From assembly GCA_028716045.1 (NCBI GenBank), contig JAQUQO010000001.1:128942-192941 (forward strand): 64,000 bases of DNA, given 5' to 3'. Made by a program: the position numbers and the translations under genes. The notes beneath the pieces were generated by a model. That model had not been told where the DNA came from, searched no databases, and worked only from the letters and a program-made list of their open reading frames with translations. The stretch is from Patescibacteria group bacterium (GTDB lineage Bacteria > Patescibacteriota > Patescibacteriia > JAQUQO01). Of the stretch, positions 3,305 to 52,207 are shown in pieces. How positions within the stretch are numbered: the first letter of the stretch is position 1; the number at the start of each line of letters is the position of its first letter.

Positions 3305-4033
3305 ATGGAGTACGCCGAGGAGGTAATAAAGATGAGTAAAAGAGGAAGTGAATTTTTGAAAGGTTTTGGGACAGGTTATGAAATTTTAAAGGTGATTATT
3401 AATGCGGTTTTAGACCGCGGCGGCACGGATGACAACCTGCGGTGTATTATTGCCGAAGGGTCAACTCTCCCGCACCAAATCGCCGAGCTTGTTCTCGGCA
3501 CTGGCAAACAGGAAGTCAAAGAGCAAGGAACTCCACCGCCCAAAAAGTTCTCTATTTGGAAAACCATTAACCTTGGCGTTGGCCCTCGGACTGCTACCGA
3601 GATTATTAAAGATTTTAATAAGATGAGTCCGCGTATGGAGATCAGCGGTTTAGCATCTGCTTTAATTGGTAATCCGTCAGAGTTTTTTGTGGCCTTTAAA
3701 GAGTTAGAAGTGAATCTTGTGATTGTCACTGTTAAAGAGCTTGGTTTTGAAGATGGAGTATGCTCCTATCAAGATATTTGTACTCGCGGTATAAAGATGG
3801 GGTTAACACTTTGCCCTCCAGAAGTAGGACCACAGCTCCGTCGGCAGTATTTTGGTCGGGGATTTCTTTGGATTGCCATGAACCCTATTACTGTCTTCGG
3901 AGGGGATAGTTATATATTTGTAGTCGGCACCAGGGGTGGCGAGCTAGATATTTCTACTTCCGATGCGATTTCTCATAAAAAAGAAAGCTGGGGCCCTAAT
4001 TGTCCATTTGTTTTTATTTGTCTCCAACCGTAG
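3305..4033 (+). CDS. hypothetical protein (start may be the internal ATG at 3332, which has GGAGG upstream)
   Basis: 242 aa ORF with no recognisable motif. An intrinsic terminator follows it. Confidence 0.45.
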   Translation: MEYAEEVIKMSKRGSEFLKGFGTGYEILKVIINAVLDRGGTDDNLRCIIAEGSTLPHQIAELVLGTGKQEVKEQGTPPPKKFSIWKTINLGVGPRTATEIIKDFNKMSPRMEISGLASALIGNPSEFFVAFKELEVNLVIVTVKELGFEDGVCSYQDICTRGIKMGLTLCPPEVGPQLRRQYFGRGFLWIAMNPITVFGGDSYIFVVGTRGGELDISTSDAISHKKESWGPNCPFVFICLQP

Positions 4034-7306: not shown

Positions 7307-7335
7307 ATAATACCATATTTTAACAATTTTGTCAA
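7307..7335 (-). promoter_or_regulatory. sigma70 promoter, TTGACA-17-TATTAT. The -35 box and spacer are identical to the promoter at 20079-20107.
   Basis: Minus-strand read: cttgacaaaattgttaaaatatggtattat. It shares the 22-mer atattttaacaattttgtcaag with the locus at 20085. Confidence 0.55.
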
Positions 7336-16117: not shown

Positions 16118-17248
16118 ATGGTTACAAAAACATCATCCAAAAGCTTTTCGGTCAGTCTTTACAAAAAGATTGCCGTGAGTTTTATCACCCTTACCCTGAT
16201 TTTAGTGATATTGATTTTATATCTTTCTTTTTCGCAGGCGAAGATAAGCATCTGGCCGGTTAAAAAGATGACCAGTGCTGATTTATTGGTTGATATTATT
16301 AGAAATTCGGAAATAGAAGGTGTATTGGCGGGGGATACGTTTGAAATTACCGTAGAAGGAGAAGGAAATTTTTCTCCTACCGGAGGCAAAGAAGTGGAAG
16401 GGGTGGCTGAGGGCAAGGTAACCATTTTTAATAATTACAACAGAAACCAGCCGCTCGTGACCACTACGAGATTTTTAACCAAAGACGGATTATTATTTCG
16501 TTTGAAAAAGGGGACGTTAGTGCCGGCTGGCGGCAAAGTAGAAGCCGAAGTGTATGCCGACAAGGCGGGCAAAGCTTATGAAGTTGGCCCGTCAAAATTT
16601 ACTATCCCCGGACTTTGGGAGGGCCTGCAGGATAAAATTTTCGCCGAAAGTTTTGAAAAAATGTCGGGAGGCGTTAAAGCGGTGAAGATTATTAACGAAG
16701 ATGATATTGCGAAGGGCAAGGAAGAATTGGAGAAGAAATTTTTTGAAGAAGGAGTAAGTAAATTAAATGAATTAGCGGGCAAAAATTTAAACAATAATTT
16801 AATTTTTAAAGAAATTTTAGAAAGTTCTACTGATGTGATGCCGGGCGATGAAGTGGGAGAATTTACCATGGCGATAAAATTGAAATTAGTGGCCGTTGAC
16901 GTAGATGAGGATAAATTATTGTCTTTGGCTGAAACAAAAATGAAAAATAGTCTTTCTTCCGACCGAAGATTGGTGGAAATAAATAAGGACAGCGCCCGGT
17001 ATTCTTTAGGGAAATATGATTTGGAAAACGGAACGGCCACGCTCAACGTTTATTTGGAGGGCGAAACCGTTTTAAGAGAAACGAGTTTGATTTTTAATAA
17101 GGATAACCTTACGGGTAGAAGCAGGGCCGAAGCCGAGGCCTATTTGAAGGGTTTTGATTCCATAGATAAAGTAGAAGTTCATTTTTCCCCTTTTTGGGTG
17201 ACGAAAGTGCCAAAACTGAAGGACCATATTAAAATGGAGATAAAGTAA
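16118..17248 (+). CDS. hypothetical secreted or membrane-anchored protein
   Basis: 376 aa. A single N-terminal TM helix or signal anchor. No recognisable motif. Confidence 0.45.
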   Translation: MVTKTSSKSFSVSLYKKIAVSFITLTLILVILILYLSFSQAKISIWPVKKMTSADLLVDIIRNSEIEGVLAGDTFEITVEGEGNFSPTGGKEVEGVAEGKVTIFNNYNRNQPLVTTTRFLTKDGLLFRLKKGTLVPAGGKVEAEVYADKAGKAYEVGPSKFTIPGLWEGLQDKIFAESFEKMSGGVKAVKIINEDDIAKGKEELEKKFFEEGVSKLNELAGKNLNNNLIFKEILESSTDVMPGDEVGEFTMAIKLKLVAVDVDEDKLLSLAETKMKNSLSSDRRLVEINKDSARYSLGKYDLENGTATLNVYLEGETVLRETSLIFNKDNLTGRSRAEAEAYLKGFDSIDKVEVHFSPFWVTKVPKLKDHIKMEIK

Positions 17249-17288
17249 TTTAGCTTTAATATTTTATACCGGGGATTATTTAAAGAGT

Positions 17289-17316
17289 TTGACAAGTTTT
17301 TGTAAAGTGATACTAT
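17289..17316 (+). promoter_or_regulatory. sigma70 promoter, TTGACA-16-TACTAT, upstream of the thrS leader
   Basis: ttgaca at 17289-17294. tactat at 17311-17316. Confidence 0.5.
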
Positions 17317-17319
17317 ACT

Positions 17320-17497
17320 AAATAGTTAAAGGGTGATTGAAGTAGTTACCAACTATTTTCCGTTTATAGGACCCCGACTCCGCCTTTGCGGGGCGAGGCT
17401 AAACCCTTAATTAAGCGCCCTAAAAGGGAAGTTGGGTGGAACCGCCCCGATATAGCGTCGGGGTCCCAAGCAGTCGTTAGGATTGGTTGGGTTTTTT
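17320..17497 (+). ncRNA. probable T-box riboswitch leader (Thr-specific, ACC specifier) ending in an intrinsic terminator
   Basis: Stem I is aaatagtt...aactattt, with acc-a at 17348-17351 on the 3' side of the internal loop. T-box-like GGGTGGAACCGCC at 17434-17446. An antiterminator can form from ttggg / 7-nt bulge tggaacc / gccccga..tcggggt / cccaa. The cccaagcagtc (17465-17475) stretch, whose first five nt are the cccaa 3' strand of the antiterminator, can instead pair with gattggttggg (17481-17491) followed by T6, giving a terminator. Confidence 0.55.
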
Positions 17498-17552: not shown

Positions 17553-19352
17553 ATGAATAAAGACACAGAAATTTTACGCCATTCATTAGCGCATTTGATG
17601 GCCGCGGCCGTGCAGGAACTTTATCCCGAAGCCAAATTTGGTATTGGGCCGGTGATTGAAAACGGCTTTTATTACGATTTTGATTTGCCGGAAAAGCTGA
17701 CTCCCGAAGATTTATTAAAAATAGAAAAAAGGGTGGGAGAACTTATAAAAAAAGATGTAGTTTTTACAAGGGAAGAAATGGATGTGGCTTCGGCTATTAA
17801 ACTTTTTAAAAAACTCGGTCAGGATTACAAGGTGGAACTTTTAAAAGATATTAAAGAAAAAGGCACTACCAAGATAAAAGGAGATGAATTTGAGGAAATA
17901 AGCGGTTTTAAGCCGGAAGCAGTGTCCGTTTACAGTACGGGGAATTTTATTGACCTTTGCCGCGGCCCGCACGTTGCTTCGGCCAAGGAGTTGTCAAAAA
18001 TGGGCTTTAAACTTCTCAAGCTGGCCGGAGCTTATTGGCGGGGCAGTGAGAAAAATAAGATGCTACAACGTATTTACGGATTAGCCTTCGCCTCGAAGAA
18101 AGATTTGGAGGAGCATCTAAAGATGCTGGAAGAAGCGGAAAAACGGGACCATCGTAAAATCGGCGCTGAGCAGGAACTGTTTTTTATAGACGATTTAGTA
18201 GGTAAGGGTCTCGTGATGTGGCAACCAAATGGTGTAATTATCAGAAACGAGATAGAAAAATTGGTGGTGGAGATGGAACGTCGGGCGGGTTATGTGCGTG
18301 TGGTGACACCCCATATGGCCAAAGAAGAACTGTATCTTACTTCCGGACATTTACCGTATTATAAAGAAAGTATGTATCCGGCTATGGTGATGGATGATGG
18401 CACGTATTATCTCAAAGCCATGAATTGTCCGCATCATCATTTAATTTTCCGTCACAAAAGCAGAAGCTACCGCGACCTGCCAATGCGTCTCGCGGAATAT
18501 GGCACCTGCTATCGCAATGAGCTCTCCGGTACTTTGGCGGGACTTTTACGCGTGAGGGGGTTAGCCATGAATGATGCGCATATTTATTGCCGCAGAGACC
18601 AGATAAAAGAGGAGTTCAAAAACGTGATGGAGCTAACCATGGGATATTTTAAAATTTTTAACCATAAGGATTATTGGTTTAGGTTGTCAAAATGGAGTCC
18701 GGAACATTTGGATAAATACATCAATGAACCGGACAATTGGGGATATAGCCAGAACGTTATTCGCGAGGTGTTGGAAGAGATGGGCGTCAAATATGTGGAA
18801 GCGGAAAATGAGGCGGCGTTTTATGGGCCCAAGGTTGATGTCCAATTTAAATCCATAATTGGCCGCGAGGAAACAATGTCCACTATTCAGCTTGATTTTG
18901 TGGCTAAAACGAGGTTCAATTTGAATTATATTGACGAAACTGGCAGAGAAAATAATGAAGTGTTCGTTATCCATCGCGCGCCCCTATCCACTCACGAGCG
19001 TTTTTTGGCTTTTCTCATTGAACATTACGGCGGAGTTTGGCCAGTGTGGCTTTCTCCGGCGCAGGTGGTAATTTTAACTGTCGGGGAGAAACATGCGGAT
19101 TTTGCCGGTAAATTAGTTGAAGGATTAAGAGCGGAAAATATCAGGGCAGAGCTTGATGTTTCCGATGAAACCGTGGGCAATAAAATCCGCAAAGCCGAGA
19201 AGCAAAAAATACCTTACATGCTGGTTATCGGCGATAAGGAAATGTCTTCGCCCAACCTTCAGGTGCGCGTGCGCGGTGAAAAGGAAGTGGTGGAAATGCC
19301 CAAAAAGGAATTTATTGAGAAAATCAAAAAAGAGATAGCTGAAAGAAAATAA
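17553..19352 (+). CDS. thrS: threonine--tRNA ligase
   Basis: 599 aa. N2 editing-domain motifs (HSLAHLMAAAVQ). Class II catalytic core. C-terminal anticodon-binding domain. Confidence 0.9.
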   Translation: MNKDTEILRHSLAHLMAAAVQELYPEAKFGIGPVIENGFYYDFDLPEKLTPEDLLKIEKRVGELIKKDVVFTREEMDVASAIKLFKKLGQDYKVELLKDIKEKGTTKIKGDEFEEISGFKPEAVSVYSTGNFIDLCRGPHVASAKELSKMGFKLLKLAGAYWRGSEKNKMLQRIYGLAFASKKDLEEHLKMLEEAEKRDHRKIGAEQELFFIDDLVGKGLVMWQPNGVIIRNEIEKLVVEMERRAGYVRVVTPHMAKEELYLTSGHLPYYKESMYPAMVMDDGTYYLKAMNCPHHHLIFRHKSRSYRDLPMRLAEYGTCYRNELSGTLAGLLRVRGLAMNDAHIYCRRDQIKEEFKNVMELTMGYFKIFNHKDYWFRLSKWSPEHLDKYINEPDNWGYSQNVIREVLEEMGVKYVEAENEAAFYGPKVDVQFKSIIGREETMSTIQLDFVAKTRFNLNYIDETGRENNEVFVIHRAPLSTHERFLAFLIEHYGGVWPVWLSPAQVVILTVGEKHADFAGKLVEGLRAENIRAELDVSDETVGNKIRKAEKQKIPYMLVIGDKEMSSPNLQVRVRGEKEVVEMPKKEFIEKIKKEIAERK

Positions 19353-20078: not shown

Positions 20079-20107
20079 ATTATAGCATATTTTAACAATT
20101 TTGTCAA
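20079..20107 (-). promoter_or_regulatory. sigma70 promoter, TTGACA-17-TATAAT (perfect consensus). The -35 box and spacer are identical to the promoter at 7307-7335.
   Basis: Minus-strand read: cttgacaaaattgttaaaatatgctataat. Confidence 0.6.
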
Positions 20108-20133
20108 GACCCGTCAGTCGCGACTGACGGGTC
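20108..20133. promoter_or_regulatory. perfect 26-bp palindrome GACCCGTCAGTCGCGACTGACGGGTC abutting the -35 box. Member of a three-copy family.
   Basis: It is its own reverse complement. The variant at 51730-51755 (gacccgtcggtcgcgaccgacgggtc) differs only at symmetric positions, i.e. compensatory changes. A degenerate copy sits at 52168-52193. Confidence 0.5.
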
Positions 20134-20397
20134 AAGCGGTTATAGCCGAAATTTGGCTAAGATTAAGGATATTTTTGCCATTAGTTTGTTTAAAAATAAA
20201 AAGACGGGCCTGTCGTTTTGGAAACAGGCCCGAGGGAAATAACGCCGGGAGAGGAGGAAAACCGGCGAATAAGGGGTTTTTGATGAGATTTTTTATCTCT
20301 TATTTGGGAGTATAACACAGATGTTAAATATAGTCAAGCGCTCGTTCGCAAGAGAGCATTGAAGGAAAAGCTTGATTATGTTAGAATATCTCTAACT

Positions 20398-23255: not shown

Positions 23256-24251
23256 TTATATTAATATCTCTCTATTGGAAGGGAAAACTATGCAGTTGCG
23301 GATATCCGATTCTCCCAAAATCCACTGCGACACTCTGGCCAGCCCGATGCCGCAGCCGGCATGCGGCACATTGCCATGTTTTTCCAGCTGTTCTATATAC
23401 CAGGCAAAATCGTTGATGCTTCCGCCCTTTTCCAATAATCTTCTGAACATCCGCGAATTTTTTAATCTTTTTTGCAGGGTGTCCGCATCATAAATTCTCG
23501 CCGCAGCGCCAACCGATTCGCCGCCGTAAGGTAGTATCAGGTCAGTGGAAAGCACCCGCCCGGGATTTTCTTTGTCCGGTATCATATTGAAGAATTTTTC
23601 CACCTCAATATTTTTTTTGAAATCATACATCGGGTCGGGGAAGCGGGTGATAAACAGTGGCTGGTCGCCGAAATATTCCACGAGTTTTTGCTCTTCTAAA
23701 CTCGAAATGTCGTCGCCCCATTCTTTTTTAAATCCAAGTTTGATGAGCAGTTTTATCGCTTCGTCGTAAGTGATTTCGTTAAAAATTTCCGGGCACTTAT
23801 TTAATCTTTCCGTGGTCGGGCCATCCAGCCCGATTTTTTCTTTATGTTTTGCCACGCCCACGGCGATGTTATGGATTATCCCCGCTATTTCTTTAAGCAA
23901 GCCATGGAAGTCGGTTTCCAGTTCAATTTCCAGCATTTGGAATTCGGTTAAGTGGCGCGCGTCGGCTTTGGGTTCGGCGCGGAAGCTTGGGCCGGCGCAA
24001 AAGACCTTTTTAAATTTCGGCACCATGGCTTCAAGGTAGAGCTGGCCGGTTTGAGCGAGATATCCTTTTTGGCCGCAAAACCAGCGGTCGTCATCTTCAA
24101 CCTTGACTTCAAAAAGCGTATTGATATTTTCGCAGGCGCCGCTCGCCCGCACAATGCGCGGCACCATGATTTCCGTGTAGCCGTTTTGTTCCAAATACTC
24201 GCGTCCGGATTTGATGATTTGATGGTTGAGTTTGACTAAGGTTTGGTTCAT
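23256..24251 (-). CDS. asnA: class II aaRS catalytic-core paralog, AsnA-like (aspartate--ammonia ligase / archaeal-type asparagine synthetase)
   Basis: 331 aa with no anticodon-binding domain. Motif 2 FRAE...TEFQMLE. Motif 3-like GCGIGLARV. Length matches AsnA. Confidence 0.55.
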   Translation of the reverse strand: MNQTLVKLNHQIIKSGREYLEQNGYTEIMVPRIVRASGACENINTLFEVKVEDDDRWFCGQKGYLAQTGQLYLEAMVPKFKKVFCAGPSFRAEPKADARHLTEFQMLEIELETDFHGLLKEIAGIIHNIAVGVAKHKEKIGLDGPTTERLNKCPEIFNEITYDEAIKLLIKLGFKKEWGDDISSLEEQKLVEYFGDQPLFITRFPDPMYDFKKNIEVEKFFNMIPDKENPGRVLSTDLILPYGGESVGAAARIYDADTLQKRLKNSRMFRRLLEKGGSINDFAWYIEQLEKHGNVPHAGCGIGLARVSQWILGESDIRNCIVFPSNREILI

Positions 24252-25047: not shown

Positions 25048-26589
25048 TTAATTCAGTTTTATCTTTATCATCTCCGCCACTTTTTGCGCGTTGGCGCGGC
25101 CCTTGGTTTCGCGCATCACCATACCGACAAGAAATTGTAAAATAGGTTCTTTGCCGTTTTTAAACTCGGCAACTTGTTGAGGATTATTTTTTATCACTTT
25201 ATCAATAATTTTTTCCAATTCATCGCTATTATCAATCTGCTCCAATCCTTTTTCTTCAATGGCGTGCGAAGGGTCGATGCCGGTTTTGAACATCATCTCT
25301 AAAACAGTCTGGGCGGTGGTAGTATTTAATTTGTTTTGATAAATCAAAGTGATAAATTCCGCAAAATTTTCCGGAGTGATTTTCGACTCTCGGGCGGTAA
25401 TTTTAGAGTCATCAAGAAGTTTTACAAAACGGTTGACGAGCCAGCCGCTTAAAATTTTTATCAACCTCTTTTTATTTTTATTCCAGATTTCTTCCGCCGT
25501 CCCTTCTATCTCCGGCAAATTATCCAGCCAATCCTTTAGTTCCGAGATTACCTCTTCAGTGTATTCTGACAGTTCTTTATCATTGACGATAATTCGCGCG
25601 TCGGCGGAAGTAAAACCGTATTCCTCGGCAAATCGTTCCCGCTTGGCCGCCGGCAATTCAGGCAGGCTATTTTTTACTTCTTTCAAAAGTTTTTTTAAAT
25701 TAAGCGGCGGCAGGTCCGTCTCGGGCATATAACGATAGTCGTGAGCCTCTTCCTTACCCCGTTGTTCTTCGGTCATTTGTCTTTCATCATTCCAGCCGCG
25801 TGTGGTTTGAAATTTTGGTGGTTGCCCCTTTTTCCAAAGTTCGGTCTGCCGTTTGATTTCGTAATCCAAAGCGCGTTCCACTGAACGGAAGGAGTTCATG
25901 TTTTTTATTTCCGTTTTAGCGGAAAGAGGGGAAAGCGTCGGCCGTTCTTTCTTATCAATTTTTATTTCCCGCAAAGAGATATTGGCATCGCAACGAAGCT
26001 GGCCTTTTTCCATATCGGCGTCGGAAACATCCAAATAACGCATTAGCAGGCGCAATTCTTGGAGGAAAATCTTGGCTTCTTCCGGTGAGCGAAAATCCGG
26101 CTCAGTGACTATTTCCAAAAGCGGGGTTCCGGAACGGTTGAAATCAACGAGCGACGATTCATTTTTTTGGTCGTGTACCAGCTTGGCAGCGTCTTCTTCC
26201 AAATGAATGCGCGTTAAATTTATTTTTATTTCGCGCGGTTCTTTTTCCTCGCGGTCGAAAATTCTAAAAGTCAGATATCCGCCGGCGGCAATGGGCTGGT
26301 CAAATTGAGAAATCTGATAACCCTTGGGCAGGTCCGGATAAAAATAATTTTTGCGGTCAAATTTAGAAAATTCAGCAATCTGACAATTTAAAGCCAGCCC
26401 GGCCAAGAGGCCGAATTTCAAAGCTCCCAAATTAAGCACCGGCAAAGCTCCGGGCTGACCAGTGCAGACGGGGCAGATATTGGTGTTAGGAGGGGCGCTG
26501 TCTCCCGCGTTCGGGCAGGAGCAGAACATTTTGCTTTTAGTTTTGAGCTGGACGTGAATTTCCAGCCCAATAACCGGTTGGAGATTCAT
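25048..26589 (-). CDS. gatB: Asp/Glu-tRNA(Asn/Gln) amidotransferase subunit B
   Basis: 513 aa. N-terminal MNLQPVIGLEIHVQLKTKSKMFC motif, conserved Cys/His cradle and a C-terminal GatB/YqeY tail. About 30 aa longer than typical. Confidence 0.9.
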   Translation of the reverse strand: MNLQPVIGLEIHVQLKTKSKMFCSCPNAGDSAPPNTNICPVCTGQPGALPVLNLGALKFGLLAGLALNCQIAEFSKFDRKNYFYPDLPKGYQISQFDQPIAAGGYLTFRIFDREEKEPREIKINLTRIHLEEDAAKLVHDQKNESSLVDFNRSGTPLLEIVTEPDFRSPEEAKIFLQELRLLMRYLDVSDADMEKGQLRCDANISLREIKIDKKERPTLSPLSAKTEIKNMNSFRSVERALDYEIKRQTELWKKGQPPKFQTTRGWNDERQMTEEQRGKEEAHDYRYMPETDLPPLNLKKLLKEVKNSLPELPAAKRERFAEEYGFTSADARIIVNDKELSEYTEEVISELKDWLDNLPEIEGTAEEIWNKNKKRLIKILSGWLVNRFVKLLDDSKITARESKITPENFAEFITLIYQNKLNTTTAQTVLEMMFKTGIDPSHAIEEKGLEQIDNSDELEKIIDKVIKNNPQQVAEFKNGKEPILQFLVGMVMRETKGRANAQKVAEMIKIKLN

Positions 26590-34504: not shown

Positions 34505-35116
34505 TTAGAAAGAGAAGTGTAAACGGCCGACGGGTACGAAGGCATTTGGTGAATCGGGGAAGCGGCGATAGTGGATAGCTAAATTAAGCTCTACTTGTCC
34601 ATAGCTTAGAGTCATATTTGGCCCTCCGCCGATGGATTGTTTATCCCAGTCAATTTCTCCCCAGCCCTCTCCTTCCAGCCCGACCATCAGCGATTTGTTG
34701 AAGAGTCTATAGTCAATCATACCGAAGTAATAGAGCTCGTCAATCGGCCAGTGATTATATTCCACGTCTCCCCAGAAAAAAATATAGTCGTCAGTATAGC
34801 AGGGCATCAATGAAATTATCGGGGCGGCGTCATCTCCGGGACGAAAATTCCAGCCCACGGACGGTTCCAAAGCGAAGCCGTGGCCAAGATTGAATTTCGC
34901 GCCGGCGTAAAGATATGGGCTTAGCTCGCCGATGAGATTTCCCGCGGGGATAAAGTGCAGAGTGAGGGCGGAGAAATCATTTAATCTTTTTTCCGCATGC
35001 ACGAGCAATCGGAAACTCGCGTCAGACCAGTTGTCAGTTTCTTCTTTGGCCTCGGCGTAAGCGAAGAGTGTAGATATTAAGGTTAGTAAGGCAAAAATCA
35101 AACAAATTTTTTTCAT
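34505..35116 (-). CDS. putative small outer-membrane beta-barrel-like protein (signal peptide, C-terminal aromatic residue)
   Basis: 203 aa. Signal peptide MKKICLIFALLTLISTLFAYA. Alternating hydrophobic beta-strand pattern. The protein ends ...GRLHFSF, an OMP-type C-terminal Phe. Confidence 0.45.
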   Translation of the reverse strand: MKKICLIFALLTLISTLFAYAEAKEETDNWSDASFRLLVHAEKRLNDFSALTLHFIPAGNLIGELSPYLYAGAKFNLGHGFALEPSVGWNFRPGDDAAPIISLMPCYTDDYIFFWGDVEYNHWPIDELYYFGMIDYRLFNKSLMVGLEGEGWGEIDWDKQSIGGGPNMTLSYGQVELNLAIHYRRFPDSPNAFVPVGRLHFSF

Positions 35117-35211
35117 TTTCTTCTCTCCTTTGTTGTTGGGTTTTTAAGAAACAAGGTTGATGTGTCAGCTTAGCAGATTCGGTAAATTTTGTCAAGACCG
35201 CCTGGACGGGG

Positions 35212-35239
35212 TTGACAAAATTTGCGTATATGATAATAT
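35212..35239 (+). promoter_or_regulatory. sigma70 promoter (TTGACA-16-TAATAT) for the tRNA. Its -35 box forms a palindrome with the divergent -35 box of the 34505 gene.
   Basis: ttgtcaag-N16-ttgacaa spans 35189-35218. On the minus strand it reads TTGACA-17-TAAGCT. Confidence 0.5.
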
Positions 35240-35257
35240 CTTTTAAAGTTTGTTAAC

Positions 35258-35340
35258 GTCGTTGTAGCTCAAAGGCAGAGCACCCCGACAGCGCTAATGC
35301 TTAAACGGGGAGGTCGGGGGTTCAAGTCCCTCCAACGACC
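35258..35340 (+). tRNA. tRNA gene (83 nt, CCA not encoded) with a non-canonical 18-nt anticodon loop, consistent with an 11-nt insertion or intron. Anticodon undetermined.
   Basis: Acceptor gtcgttg/caacgac. U8, A14, GG18-19, A21. D-arm gctc/gagc. Anticodon stem ccccg/cgggg enclosing acagcgctaatgcttaaa. Variable loop aggtc. T-arm ggggg-ttcaagt-ccctc. Discriminator C. An intrinsic terminator follows. Confidence 0.6.
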
Positions 35341-35355
35341 TTAATTTAAATAACT

Positions 35356-35388
35356 AACGCCCTTCAAAAGAAAGGCGTTTTTTAAATA
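35356..35388 (+). terminator. rho-independent terminator after the tRNA
   Basis: aacgccctt-caaaag-aaaggcgtt followed by tttttt. Confidence 0.55.
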
Positions 35389-35419
35389 TAGATATCCCAA
35401 AGTTCAGCGATGTTCATTT

Positions 35420-35761
35420 TCATAAATATTTCACGAACTTGTTATTTTTATCCACCAAAATATTTTTAGCTTTGATTGGTTTGTCGGTTAATTCAAAGCC
35501 CATGATGATTATTTCCTCTCCTTTTTTAATCAAATGGGCGGCGGCGCCGTTCATACAAATAATTCCTGAATTTTTTTTGCCCACAATGACATAAGTTTCC
35601 AATCTTGCGCCAGAGGTATTACTAACTACTAAAACTTTTTCACCGGGCCAAAAACCGACCCTTTCAACCAAATCTTCGTCAATTGTAATACTGCCGATAT
35701 AATTTAAATCGGCTTCGGTAACCGTAGCCTTATGAATTTTGGAACGTAATATCCATCTCAT
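35420..35761 (-). CDS. panD: aspartate 1-decarboxylase (pyruvoyl-dependent)
   Basis: 113 aa. MRWILRSKIHKATVTEADLNYIGSITID, including the self-processing Gly-Ser site. Confidence 0.85.
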   Translation of the reverse strand: MRWILRSKIHKATVTEADLNYIGSITIDEDLVERVGFWPGEKVLVVSNTSGARLETYVIVGKKNSGIICMNGAAAHLIKKGEEIIIMGFELTDKPIKAKNILVDKNNKFVKYL

Positions 35762-37045: not shown

Positions 37046-37068
37046 GGTTCAATCTTGCAGATTGAACC
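37046..37068. repeat. REP-like hairpin (copy 1): ggttcaatct-tgc-agattgaacc
   Basis: 10-bp stem with a 3-nt loop, directly 3' of the RAYT gene. Near-identical copies at 37605 and 38483. Confidence 0.65.
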
Positions 37069-37073
37069 TTTTC

Positions 37074-37574
37074 TTAATTTCTCTTATCCGCCAATTCCAG
37101 CAAATTTTCCGGATTAGCCGAAGACCAAATCCAATCTTCGGGACGTTTGACGTATTGTTTTCTGACCGGGTTTTGTTCTATATAATTTACTTTCTGCAGA
37201 TAGAATTTTTCGTTTTCAATAAGTTCCGGCCAATTTTTCGGTTGCCAGAATTGATAAGTATCATTTTCTTTAAAAAGTTCAAGGACGCGAGGCTCGGTTT
37301 CTGATAGATTCTTCTTTAATTCTTTTGAAGTAAAAGTTTTAAAATCTCTTGTAAAACCCGCAAGATCACTATTCTCAGCTATAAGATGGATGTGATTAAG
37401 CATGAAGACCCAGGCGTATATTTTTAAACTTTTATTATTCTGGCAGTATTGCAGAGAATTAAGCAGGATATTCCAGCGGTCATATCTGTCAAAAAGGTAG
37501 TACCAACGTTTAACTGTAAAAGTTAGAAAATGTATTTTGTTTTTTAATTCTTTGCTGATGCGAGGCGATGGCAT
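37074..37574 (-). mobile_element. REP-associated tyrosine transposase (RAYT / IS200-IS605 TnpA-like HUH endonuclease)
   Basis: 166 aa. HUH motif in FMLNHIHLIAE. Conserved C-terminal Tyr region. Flanked on both sides by REP hairpins. Confidence 0.7.
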
Positions 37575-37604: not shown

Positions 37605-37678
37605 GGTTCAATCTGTAAGATTGAACCAACGGAAGGCTCTGCAAGAGCCGTAACTAGATATACGCTGTTATGTGCTGT
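37605..37678. repeat. REP copy 2 (ggttcaatct-gta-agattgaacc) followed by a second hairpin module, ggctctgcaagagcc-gtaacYagatatacgcYgttat
   Basis: The module at 37633-37678 recurs at 54995-55040 with about 90% identity. Confidence 0.6.
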
Positions 37679-38482: not shown

Positions 38483-38505
38483 GGTTCAATCTTGCAGATT
38501 AAACC
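38483..38505. repeat. REP copy 3: ggttcaatct-tgc-agattaaacc
   Basis: Same orientation and flank (ttt(c/t)c) as copy 1. Lies 8 nt from the gyrB stop. Confidence 0.6.
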
Positions 38506-38513
38506 TTTCCATT

Positions 38514-40737: not shown

Positions 40738-40806
40738 GCCCTCCCACCACCCTGTCCCTATCCCAAGTCCTCGGGACGGGACGCCCCTCCTCAGGCAGGA
40801 GGGGAA
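40738..40806. repeat. ~65-bp GC-rich two-hairpin element (direct-repeat copy A)
   Basis: caccaccctgtccctatcccaagtcctcgggacgggacgcccctcctcaggcaggagggg. About 85% identical to 42417-42480, in the same orientation. Confidence 0.6.
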
Positions 40807-40883: not shown

Positions 40884-42404
40884 ATGGGTAATTTAGAAGA
40901 AAATAAAAGGTCTATTAAAGGGTCTAAAGAATATGGGGAATTTTTAAAAGAATTGGATAAATCTCCCGCTCCGGAGGTGAGTGCGGAAGAAATCGGAAGG
41001 TTCAAAGAAGAAATTGATAAAGAAATTGAATTTGACAAATTCAGAGAAGAACTGGATAAAATCCCCGCCAAAAAAGTTGAACGGCGTTTAGGGAAGAAGA
41101 GTGATTATTATCGCCGCTTTTATAGTAGAGTTTATGAGTTATCAGGCAGAAATAGGGAAGCGGAATTGGATAAAATAGAAAAAGAACTGGACGACCAGCA
41201 GATTTTTCTTGATGCGGAAGAGAAAAAATTAGCGGCGGAAGCGATGGGCAGCAGAAAAATTTCCAAAGAACTTAAGTCCAGGATTCTTAATTATAATAGA
41301 ACCGCTGATGAGATTAAAATCAAAAGGACGGCTTATAACGCCTTGGTTAAGAATTTTCAGGATTTGAAATTTACCGCAGATGAAAGGGATGTTGTTGAAA
41401 AACCATGGAAAGTTCACGGGGTGACCGAGGCCGATTTTCTTCCGGAAGAACCGGTTGAGGAGAGCGAAATTCCTCCCGAACTTACTCCGGCGGAAGAACA
41501 ACGGCTAGAAAAAGAAGCGGAGATAAAAGAGCGCGCCAGACGTTTGCGTTCGCCGGAAAAGACAGTGGAAATTGCGCCGGATTACGAAGCGGAAATTAAA
41601 AAGATGGAGGCGGCCGACGCAGAAGCTATAAAAAAATTAGAGGCCCAGATTAAGAGCGTTAAAAAATCCCCGCACCTCGCCGGAATAGTCCAGGGTTTCA
41701 AACCCAAAGAATTTGTAGCCAAAAGCAACCGTTTGTTTGACCTTGAAGAAGAACTTGTTTCCCAGGGATTTGTGCCGGGCCACCCGATTAAAAATTTTTT
41801 CAACAAACCGTTTGATAAAAACTACAGAAAATCAGTAAAAGAATTTAATGTTTTAAATAAGGACGTGGCGGCCCAGACGGATATCGTGGAAAATTATCTG
41901 GAGCTGGCTGATTCAGTTTCACCGGTGGAAGAGAGAGAAATGTTCGCCAGCAGAGAGAGGCCGATGGAAGAGGAACTGGCGTTCTATAAAAAAGAAATAA
42001 ATGCGCTGGAGAGCAAAATAAGGGAAGCGATAAGGAGAGACAAAGAAAATGCCGAGAGGATTGATTTTTCGGCCAAGGATTATTTTATTGATTTTATCTC
42101 CGTGACGAAATTGCAGGATAAGCTGATAAATAATTTTGGTTTTTTTATCGGTCAGGGCGGGGGTAGAAATTTGTGGGAGGCGATAAAAAGGGGCAATGTC
42201 AATGTTTATAGAAAATTTAAAAAAGACCACGATGGATTTTTAAGCGATTTAAATCAAAAAGATAGAATCTTAAAGTTATGCCTGGGCGCTGAGGCCCTGG
42301 AGAAAACGCGCCGGGCGATTAAGCATTTCCCTCAGCCAGAACTAATTGACCGTTTAGAGATGGCCTTAAAGAGAACGAATTTGGATAAAGAAAAAGCAGC
42401 TTGA
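40884..42404 (+). CDS. hypothetical coiled-coil, E/K-rich protein flanked by direct repeats
   Basis: 506 aa. Highly charged heptad-like sequence. No catalytic motifs. Confidence 0.45.
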   Translation: MGNLEENKRSIKGSKEYGEFLKELDKSPAPEVSAEEIGRFKEEIDKEIEFDKFREELDKIPAKKVERRLGKKSDYYRRFYSRVYELSGRNREAELDKIEKELDDQQIFLDAEEKKLAAEAMGSRKISKELKSRILNYNRTADEIKIKRTAYNALVKNFQDLKFTADERDVVEKPWKVHGVTEADFLPEEPVEESEIPPELTPAEEQRLEKEAEIKERARRLRSPEKTVEIAPDYEAEIKKMEAADAEAIKKLEAQIKSVKKSPHLAGIVQGFKPKEFVAKSNRLFDLEEELVSQGFVPGHPIKNFFNKPFDKNYRKSVKEFNVLNKDVAAQTDIVENYLELADSVSPVEEREMFASRERPMEEELAFYKKEINALESKIREAIRRDKENAERIDFSAKDYFIDFISVTKLQDKLINNFGFFIGQGGGRNLWEAIKRGNVNVYRKFKKDHDGFLSDLNQKDRILKLCLGAEALEKTRRAIKHFPQPELIDRLEMALKRTNLDKEKAA

Positions 42405-42416
42405 TTTTAAAATTTT

Positions 42417-42480
42417 CACCACCCCGTCCCGATACCGAGTCCTCGGGACGGGACGCCCTTCCTCAACAAGGAAGGGAATG
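42417..42480. repeat. ~65-bp GC-rich two-hairpin element (direct-repeat copy B)
   Basis: caccaccccgtcccgataccgagtcctcgggacgggacgcccttcctcaacaaggaaggg. Confidence 0.6.
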
Positions 42481-48299: not shown

Positions 48300-48412
48300 G
48301 GTTCTAATTCTCCCTGTGGTTTTTTATGGTTTTTAAAACAATTCCTTTATGTTATTTCAAAAAACAAACTTCTCCATAGCTTATCGTATTATCACTATTT
48401 TGTCAAGAGATA

Positions 48413-51675: not shown

Positions 51676-51729
51676 ATTGGCATTTAAAATTTTATAGTAT
51701 TCCCAGTGTATCACAGCCCGATTTTTTTG

Positions 51730-51755
51730 GCAAGACCCGTCGGTCGCGACCGACG
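51730..51755. promoter_or_regulatory. perfect 26-bp palindrome GACCCGTCGGTCGCGACCGACGGGTC (family copy 2), in the rpmE upstream region
   Basis: It is its own reverse complement. It sits between an rpmE-proximal ttgcca -35 box and a plus-strand TTGACC. Confidence 0.45.
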
Positions 51756-51840
51756 GGTCAGGGGCTTGACCTTTAATTAAATACATGTTAAGGTTAAAAG
51801 CGATGAGGATTTTACTTGTAGTACATTTCAAAATTTTAAA

Positions 51841-52113: not shown

Positions 52114-52207
52114 CTAACCATATTTAAGCCGAAAGACAATTATGTCAAGTAGGCTTTTTTTGTCAAGACAAGCCAGTCGCGACCGACGGGTCTTGACAAG
52201 CCGAGGG

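Follow-up and report, generated by a model that had tools for sequence, protein, structure and literature searches.

Can a gene that has every arm of a transfer RNA, but no readable anticodon, still be a decoding tRNA, or is it an RNA that has kept the shape of a tRNA for another use? The question is raised by an 83-nt tRNA-shaped RNA gene, identified by an Rfam tRNA match and a stem check at positions 35258–35340 (+) of a 64,000-nt stretch of a Patescibacteria genome (GCA_028716045.1, contig JAQUQO010000001.1), referred to here as the window. The original prediction, made from the letters of the window, had described a canonical class I tRNA body whose 18-nt anticodon loop hides its identity, and had offered a short intron, a non-canonical tRNA and a tRNA-like regulatory RNA as explanations. 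The tRNA-like or non-canonical options fit the present analysis best and the short intron is disfavoured. At roughly even odds (a probability of about 0.5), the gene is read as encoding a non-decoding tRNA-like RNA and not an intron-bearing tRNA.

The gene reads GTCGTTG-TA-GCTC-AAAGGCA-GAGC-A-CCCCG-ACAGCGCTAATGCTTAAA-CGGGG-AGGTC-GGGGG-TTCAAGT-CCCTC-CAACGAC-C on the plus strand. It aligns end to end with the Rfam tRNA model RF00005 (model positions 1–71, 51.5 bits, E=3.8e-8 for the 64-kb window), the sole deviation being an 18-nt insert in place of the model's 7-nt anticodon loop, and it is the only tRNA-like match across the window. All 21 of its 21 stem pairs form, one of them as G-U, giving a 7-bp acceptor stem (35258–35264/35333–35339), a 4-bp D stem, a 5-bp anticodon stem and a 5-bp T stem. 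The D arm (35267–35281, stem GCUC/GAGC) is followed by A26 at 35282, the variable loop is the 5-nt AGGUC (35311–35315), and the T arm (35316–35332) closes with the loop UUCAAGU. Conserved residues U8, A14, G18, G19, A21, G53, T54, T55, C56 and A58 are all retained. Score, pairing and conserved residues together bear out the class I body with a 5-nt variable loop that had been predicted. The minimum free energy (MFE) structure is a cloverleaf that contains one further helix, inside the 18-nt loop. The discriminator is C73, followed by TTA, and CCA is not encoded. Because the identical 83 nt recur in an NCBI metagenome-assembled genome (MAG; GCA_028711565.1, contig JAQTRY010000001.1) and in two separate Logan assemblies, the gene is not an assembler artefact; the three assemblies are 100% identical over 4.8–6.3 kb and are therefore uninformative on population variation.

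Standard tRNA prediction does not supply an identity for this body. In its default mode ARAGORN called neither a tRNA nor a tmRNA in the window, which, with the Rfam alignment, agrees with an 18-nt loop and an identity that cannot be read. Lowering the thresholds yielded nothing but a poor 'Ser(cga)' fold, which lacks U33 and has a D stem of 3 bp, and an ordinary tRNA in another register was rejected; no tool produced the ordinary 72–76-nt fold that the original prediction had named as evidence against itself. The relaxed modes conflict with one another, one giving Leu with an intron and the other Ser in a poor fold. Nor does the body point to a parent isotype: in a comparison with the 283 non-redundant class I tRNAs that ARAGORN identified in the fetched loci, its nearest neighbours are a mixture, with Lys, His and Thr as best matches. 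C73 with G1-C72/U2-A71 resembles tRNA-His, yet position -1 is C, not G.

The departure from an ordinary tRNA lies in the remodelled 28-nt anticodon arm (35283–35310). Its stem, CCCCG/CGGGG (35283–35287/35306–35310), encloses the 18-nt loop ACAGCGCUAAUGCUUAAA (35288–35305), which starts with AC at positions 32–33 and has no U33. In the MFE fold the loop contains a 3-bp inner helix, AGC/GCU (35290–35292/35299–35301), capped by the 6-nt loop GCUAAU. Every contiguous excision from the arm was enumerated and scored for restoration of a Y-U-NNN-R-N loop. None of the 11-nt excisions restores one, as had been claimed from inspection of the letters. The single working excision removes 13 nt (GACAGCGCUAAUG) and needs a one-base register shift, yielding ACCCC-CUUAAAC-GGGGA. 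ARAGORN in intron mode, one of the checks that had been proposed, arrives at the same 13-nt excision and reports 'tRNA-Leu(taa)' with the loop CUUAAAC and the anticodon UAA. By its fold, the stem check and the enumeration of excisions, the gene is a tRNA-derived fold that cannot decode. The origin of the expanded loop was also considered. For a single 11-nt insertion there are eight possible ancestral loops, none of which (0/8) contains U33; at least two changes must therefore have occurred in the loop, while the remaining 65 nt show none. A simple tandem duplication was rejected as the source of the insert, GCTAAT/GCTTAA being merely an imperfect 6-mer echo from which no ancestral U33 loop can be reconstructed.

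The gene carries what appear to be its own expression signals, in agreement with the original prediction. A sigma-70-type promoter (35212–35239, +) consists of TTGACA at 35212–35217, a 16-nt spacer and TAATAT at 35234–35239; it matches the consensus at 10 of 12 positions, has an extended -10 TG at 35231–35232 and ends 18 nt 5' of the gene. Transcription is expected to start near 35246, leaving a leader of about 12 nt. In the MFE fold of 35246–35390, leader nucleotides GUUAA (35252–35256, +) pair with UUAAU of the trailer (35341–35345), lengthening the acceptor helix by 5 bp over the C-1/C73 mismatch. Downstream, an intrinsic terminator (35356–35385, +) is formed by the hairpin AACGCCCUUCAAAAGAAAGGCGUU (35356–35379; 15 nt 3' of the gene, -11 kcal/mol on the plus strand) and a U-run; this terminator is bidirectional, serving the convergent panD gene on the minus strand as well. 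From the agreement of promoter and terminator with their consensus, we infer that the gene is transcribed separately.

The promoter overlaps a palindrome, AAATTTTGTCAA-N16-TTGACAAAATTT (35184–35223), whose right arm holds the -35 box of the tRNA-like gene and whose left arm may be the -35 box of a divergent gene of 203 aa. The palindrome belongs to a recurring promoter-type repeat, TTGACAAAATT (7307, 20079, 48378 and 57000), that precedes several protein genes of the window. A related promoter repeat, CTTGACAAAATTGTTAAAATATGNTATNAT, is present at 7307 and 20079; its copies at 48378 and 57000 are more divergent (73% identity). The palindrome is also a short form of a repeated module, TTTTGTCAAGAC-[GC-rich palindrome]-GTCTTGACAAAA, seen at 20099–20141, 51725–51767 and 52158–52200; these modules are possibly back-to-back -35 boxes around a hairpin that act as bidirectional promoter/terminator cassettes.

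Several lines of evidence favour a non-decoding RNA. The body is perfect and the loop aberrant, with the changes confined to the loop. The promoter and terminator are intact, and the promoter is of the strong type that is reused before protein genes of the window. The same architecture is kept by selection elsewhere in the phylum, between rplL and tgt. Bacteria mature and stabilise tRNA bodies that carry foreign hairpins (PMC3753655), and a pseudo-tRNA is known to act outside translation (PMC3399842). Further support comes from phage and metagenome contigs, where many genes, some of them within phage tRNA arrays, share an intact body and a long, irregular, non-canonical anticodon arm.

The molecule keeps the top half and elbow seen by tRNA-handling enzymes (the 7-bp acceptor, the D and T arms, G18/G19 and T54–C56), and its anticodon arm is now an irregular hairpin of 28 nt that lacks both U33 and a 7-nt loop. 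In the mechanism proposed, the transcript from the gene's own extended -10 promoter would be cut at its 5' end by RNase P, trimmed at its 3' end and given a CCA tail, like tRNAs whose genes do not encode CCA. A stable RNA of about 83–86 nt would result and work outside codon reading; its tRNA body would be a scaffold for processing and stability or would offer a handle to a partner that binds tRNA. Recognition would probably proceed through the acceptor/T-arm half; a role as a carrier charged by an anticodon-independent enzyme is a further possibility.

To our knowledge, few RNAs with the shape of a tRNA and no decoding role have been described, among them a Bacillus pseudo-tRNA, cell-wall tRNAs, tmRNA and viral 3' ends. 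With the canonical bacterial class I elongator tRNA (RF00005), the window gene shares the 7/4/5/5 cloverleaf, U8, A14, G18G19, A21, AGGUC and UUCAAGU. It differs in its 18-nt rather than 7-nt loop, the absence of U33, C73 without G-1 and the absence of CCA and, set against class I tRNAs that decode, it has no default ARAGORN call and no orthologue in relatives. The expressed pseudo-tRNA tRNAOther of Bacillus cereus lies in an accessory region and acts outside translation, with regulatory effects (PMC3399842). The window gene is likewise a tRNA-derived gene in an accessory region, but the two are reversed in what they retain, tRNAOther keeping a normal anticodon loop (Trp, used on a T-box) without the other conserved features (PMC3399842). 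In engineered tRNA scaffold RNAs, another hairpin replaces the anticodon stem-loop, and the products are recognised by bacterial factors and are stable in Escherichia coli (PMC3753655). Their layout is that of the window gene, but they are artificial and show only that such a molecule can be matured and is stable (PMC3753655). The Streptococcus small RNA SpF41 (RF02435), a tRNA-like acceptor/T-arm module followed by a terminator, matches 35253–35386 in part; membership in this family was rejected, as the score of 23.6 bits falls short of the gathering score, 52.

The closest natural analogue was found within the phylum itself. The sole other match from Patescibacteria is a tRNA-like gene between rplL and tgt (locus L134, 325–409, -), with its own promoter-like site and terminator, in which a 20-nt 'loop' folds into a 6-bp extension closed by a 6-nt loop. 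When rplJ–rplL–X–tgt loci were fetched from relatives by means of L10 homologues, a tRNA-like gene was found at the same site in L191 (about 3545–3625; 72% L10 identity), in L198 (3059–3155; 77%), where about 22 nt are also inserted in the D loop, and in the rplL–tgt intergenic region of L201/L202 (81%). The gene is degenerate in L194 (64% L10 identity) and absent from L196/L197 (55%), and a Kerfeldbacteria locus (L203) has merely a 55-nt gap after rplL. In a five-sequence alignment that includes the window gene, both partners vary in five of the seven acceptor pairs, and pairing is kept in 96% of cells; none of the shuffle and slid controls comes near the observed pairing values. The anticodon arms measure 18, 20, 28 and 30 nt, all end in 5–6-nt terminal loops, and no heptamer is common to them. 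ARAGORN in intron mode assigned the rplL–tgt orthologues to Asn, Gly, Glu and 'undetermined'. Genuine tRNA orthologues would be expected to retain a single anticodon, and these discordant assignments therefore indicate selection on the tRNA body and not on the anticodon. In L191 and L201 the gene directly follows the rplL 3' hairpin, which has no T-run; this suggests co-transcription with rplL and release by RNase P.

Like the window gene, members of this family have an intact acceptor/D/T body with a GCUC/GAGC D stem and A26, an anticodon arm in the form of an 18–30-nt hairpin with a 5–6-nt terminal loop, and their own terminator. The differences are equally clear. The family has U73 and an encoded CCA (L134, L191 and L201/L202; CTA in L198), whereas the window gene has C73 and no CCA. 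The loci differ as well, rplL–tgt in one case and an orphan open reading frame (ORF) and panD in the other, with neither tgt nor rplL among the window ORFs scanned. The arms share no sequence similarity, and the window body is no closer to the family than to unrelated phage tRNAs. The family is therefore best regarded as an analogue, which shows that such RNAs are maintained in the phylum.

A number of results weigh against assigning a function to the window gene. Common descent with the rplL–tgt family lacks support, so that the family would be an analogue and not proven kin. The inner helix of the anticodon arm is no stabler than chance, 29% of 5000 shuffled loops folding equally well or better, and this comparison ruled out the helix as a selected structure. 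A pattern made of this D arm, 7–15 extra nt, AGGTY and the T loop was searched against 185,579 species genomes, a collection that does not include the window genome; the 32 loci recovered are mostly tRNAs of DPANN archaea with ordinary short introns, and no homologue is among them. The strict body pattern with any loop length had 0 matches in JGI metagenomes. The syntenic loci of the closest relatives (L157, L159 and L160) hold neither a tRNA nor a remnant of one. Finally, no partner gene was found among the neighbouring window proteins. In addition, loop-anchored patterns returned 0 matches and 1 chance match in viral contigs, and the window contains no complementary (antisense) site for the 18-nt loop and no second copy of it.

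The main rival explanation is a young pseudogene, in which a duplicated or horizontally acquired tRNA gene, inactivated by changes in its anticodon loop, is still transcribed but is without function and has not yet decayed or been deleted. Such an origin is a real if clearly lesser possibility. The gene is present in one lineage only and is absent from the interval between gyrB and secE in relatives, an interval that is variable and contains a transposase with its associated hairpins, and its 18-nt loop has no structure above chance. The rplL–tgt genes, moreover, can evidently be lost, one being degenerate (L194) and another lineage (L196/L197) being without the gene. Against this reading, every stem pair and all conserved tertiary residues are intact, as are the promoter and terminator. 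At least two mutational events would have had to fall in the loop with none seen elsewhere. Patescibacteria genomes are small and dense, so dead genes should be short-lived. The analogous rplL–tgt family, in addition, has been kept across 72–81% L10 identity. The original prediction had also allowed that related genomes might carry a damaged pseudo-tRNA; they were found to carry no orthologue at all, damaged or otherwise. The non-decoding RNA is preferred to the pseudogene on these grounds, although the absence of orthologues and of loop structure above chance keeps the latter plausible.

A decoding tRNA with a short intron, from which a protein enzyme would remove 11–13 nt before the exons are ligated, is unlikely. 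In its favour are the ARAGORN solution, with excision of the 13 nt given above, a body of full tRNA quality, and the occurrence of 12–16-nt tRNA introns in DPANN archaea from the same kind of habitat. The 13-nt excision, however, damages the molecule that it is meant to mature. The product has four anticodon-stem pairs plus A.A, or else lacks N26, and its variable loop is reduced to 4 nt; the 5' splice site lies within the 5-bp stem and the 3' site within the inner helix. It would be a class I body with C73, which misfits bacterial tRNA-Leu, a class II tRNA with A73. At an estimated 1/16 per heptamer for Y-U-NNN-R-N, one chance solution is plausible over the many excisions that are possible, and only one was found.

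The geometry is also wrong for known introns. A bulge-helix-bulge has two 3-nt bulges on opposite strands with a 4-bp helix between them, and the splice sites lie within the bulges. In the window gene, the unpaired AC and UAAA lie across from one another in a 2x4 internal loop at a single end of the inner helix (3–4 bp), not at its two ends, and both bulge-helix-bulge and bulge-helix-loop introns were rejected. A group I intron was likewise rejected, the insert being 11–13 nt against a core of at least about 200 nt, with no Rfam intron match in the window. The pre-tRNAs of DPANN archaea (L124–L154) resemble the window gene in length (80–90 nt) and in having 12–16 extra nt in the anticodon arm. 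In those genes, C/U32–U33–anticodon directly follows the 5-bp stem and the intron lies after position 37 or in a bulge-helix-bulge, whereas the window gene has AC at 32–33, no bulge-helix-bulge and a bacterial host with sigma-70 promoters. The analogous rplL–tgt orthologues argue in the same direction, giving inconsistent anticodons when 'spliced' in silico. A literature search found no short, protein-spliced tRNA introns in Bacteria and likewise no unusual tRNAs in Patescibacteria, and neither a splicing endonuclease nor an RNA ligase is present among the approximately 50 window proteins scanned (64 kb of a genome of about 0.8–0.9 Mb). The short-intron option of the original prediction is disfavoured on all these counts.

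Still less probable is a remnant of a tRNA that served as the integration site of a mobile element at the edge of an island. Integration usually alters the 3' end of a tRNA and not its anticodon loop, and RAYTs, the transposase type encoded in this interval, move REP hairpins and not tRNA-targeting islands. The gene does occupy an accessory interval of variable content, with a RAYT gene about 1.7 kb away, and the B. cereus pseudo-tRNA likewise flanks an island (PMC3399842). It is, however, complete at both ends; no integrase was found, and the 64-kb window holds no second copy of the tRNA 3' half (att-type repeat) at up to three mismatches. The weakest alternative is decoding by the unspliced 18-nt loop, with frameshifting or codon hopping as possible examples. 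It has the intact body and nothing further in its favour and is highly improbable, as expanded loops that decode, natural or engineered, have 8–9 nt and keep U33, whereas this one has 18 nt and no U33.

A broader form of the non-decoding reading would place the window gene in an undescribed functional class of anticodon-less tRNA-like RNAs in Patescibacteria, matured, CCA-tailed and used via the acceptor/T-arm half only; this generalisation is doubtful at present. The rplL–tgt family would be its second, conserved member. A role as an amino-acid carrier is conceivable, a candidate enzyme being a paralogue of AsnRS, reduced to the catalytic core, that is encoded 11 kb away; alternatively, a tRNA-binding protein could use the RNA as a handle or be decoyed by it. 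The 331-aa AsnRS/AspRS paralogue (23256–24251, -) aligns to AsnRS residues 131–445, has no anticodon-binding domain and lies near gatB (25048–26589, same strand). The protein is possibly an enzyme of the asparagine synthetase A type, and its link to an anticodon-less RNA is pure speculation.

If reduced, symbiotic Patescibacteria do keep and express anticodon-less look-alikes, the tRNA body is reused as a natural scaffold or carrier despite scant spare genome. The window gene would be a clean stand-alone example and the rplL–tgt family a comparative set. ARAGORN either misses genes of this kind or would label them undetermined or intron-containing tRNAs, and inferences about the tRNA complement and the genetic code of these MAGs are skewed as a result. 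If the gene is merely a young pseudogene, its value is limited to an annotation warning.

The gene lies in the interval from gyrB to secE–nusG–rplK–rplA, between the 203-aa orphan ORF (34505–35116, -), which is divergent from it, and panD, encoding aspartate 1-decarboxylase (35420–35761, -), which is convergent; the window otherwise holds ordinary housekeeping genes. The closest relatives (NusG 87–88% identical) keep gyrB or secE–nusG–rplKA and differ in the content of the interval. As no tRNA is found at their syntenic loci, the gene is accessory and lineage-restricted and does not mark a core tRNA locus. The orphan has no family match and only three distant homologues, at 38% identity or less. 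The only contig with one of these (L156) encodes, beside it, a LigT-type 2',5' RNA ligase/phosphoesterase (46–651, -). Neighbouring genes were considered as a toxin or defence system and rejected: a GNAT protein is encoded beside panD, a 166-aa protein is a RAYT, and the others are orphans. This REP-associated tyrosine transposase (RAYT; NF047646, 97.7 bits) is encoded at 37074–37574 (-) and is flanked by three copies of the hairpin GGTTCAATCTTGCAGATTGAACC (37046–37071, 37605–37630 and 38483–38508), which are probably its REP elements. In the relative L159 a Y1 transposase fragment adjoins secE. Further along the window, two G+C-rich direct repeats of 62 nt, 85% identical (40745–40806 and 42417–42478), surround an orphan 506-aa ORF (40884–42404) with no Pfam match.

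A T-box-like leader at 17228–17471 (+) precedes the ThrRS gene thrS (17553–19352; tRNA_SAD, class II core and HGTP anticodon domains). Its Rfam RF00230 score, 27.7 bits, is well under the gathering score of 93. The T-box motif, GGGUGGAACCGC, is clear, and stem I is very short. The tRNA-like gene was rejected as the partner of this leader, the bulge UGGA implying U73 where the gene has C73.

Among the long-armed genes of phage and metagenome contigs, five have a 7–8-bp arm stem and a conserved 8-nt loop, UAACCAAU (the viral L032 and L081, L155 from a Limiplasma MAG, and the metagenomic L181 and L186). Because the stems vary among members and the loop is constant, these genes are suggested to form a distinct functional family. 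Another long-arm tRNA-like sequence (L163, 70–152, +) occupies the place of a spacer tRNA, immediately upstream of a bacterial 23S rRNA gene. About 30 phage tRNAs (viral loci such as L015, L029, L042, L045, L083 and L089) have a class II-like long variable arm and the loop CUUAUAC, and thus carry the anticodon UAU, an unusual combination. A Planctomycetaceae MAG (L146, 1260–1671, -) encodes three tandem tRNAs of 83–84 nt, Gly-UCC, Glu-UUC and Cys-GCA, with extended, bulged anticodon arms, 7-nt loops of the anticodon type and a common 3' flank, GTTGTCGGAC. The Gly (CUUCCAA) and Glu (CUUUCAA) loops are canonical and the Cys loop, UUGCACA, has C37. The Cys unit shares the 10-mer UUGCACACCC with the rplL–tgt gene of L191.

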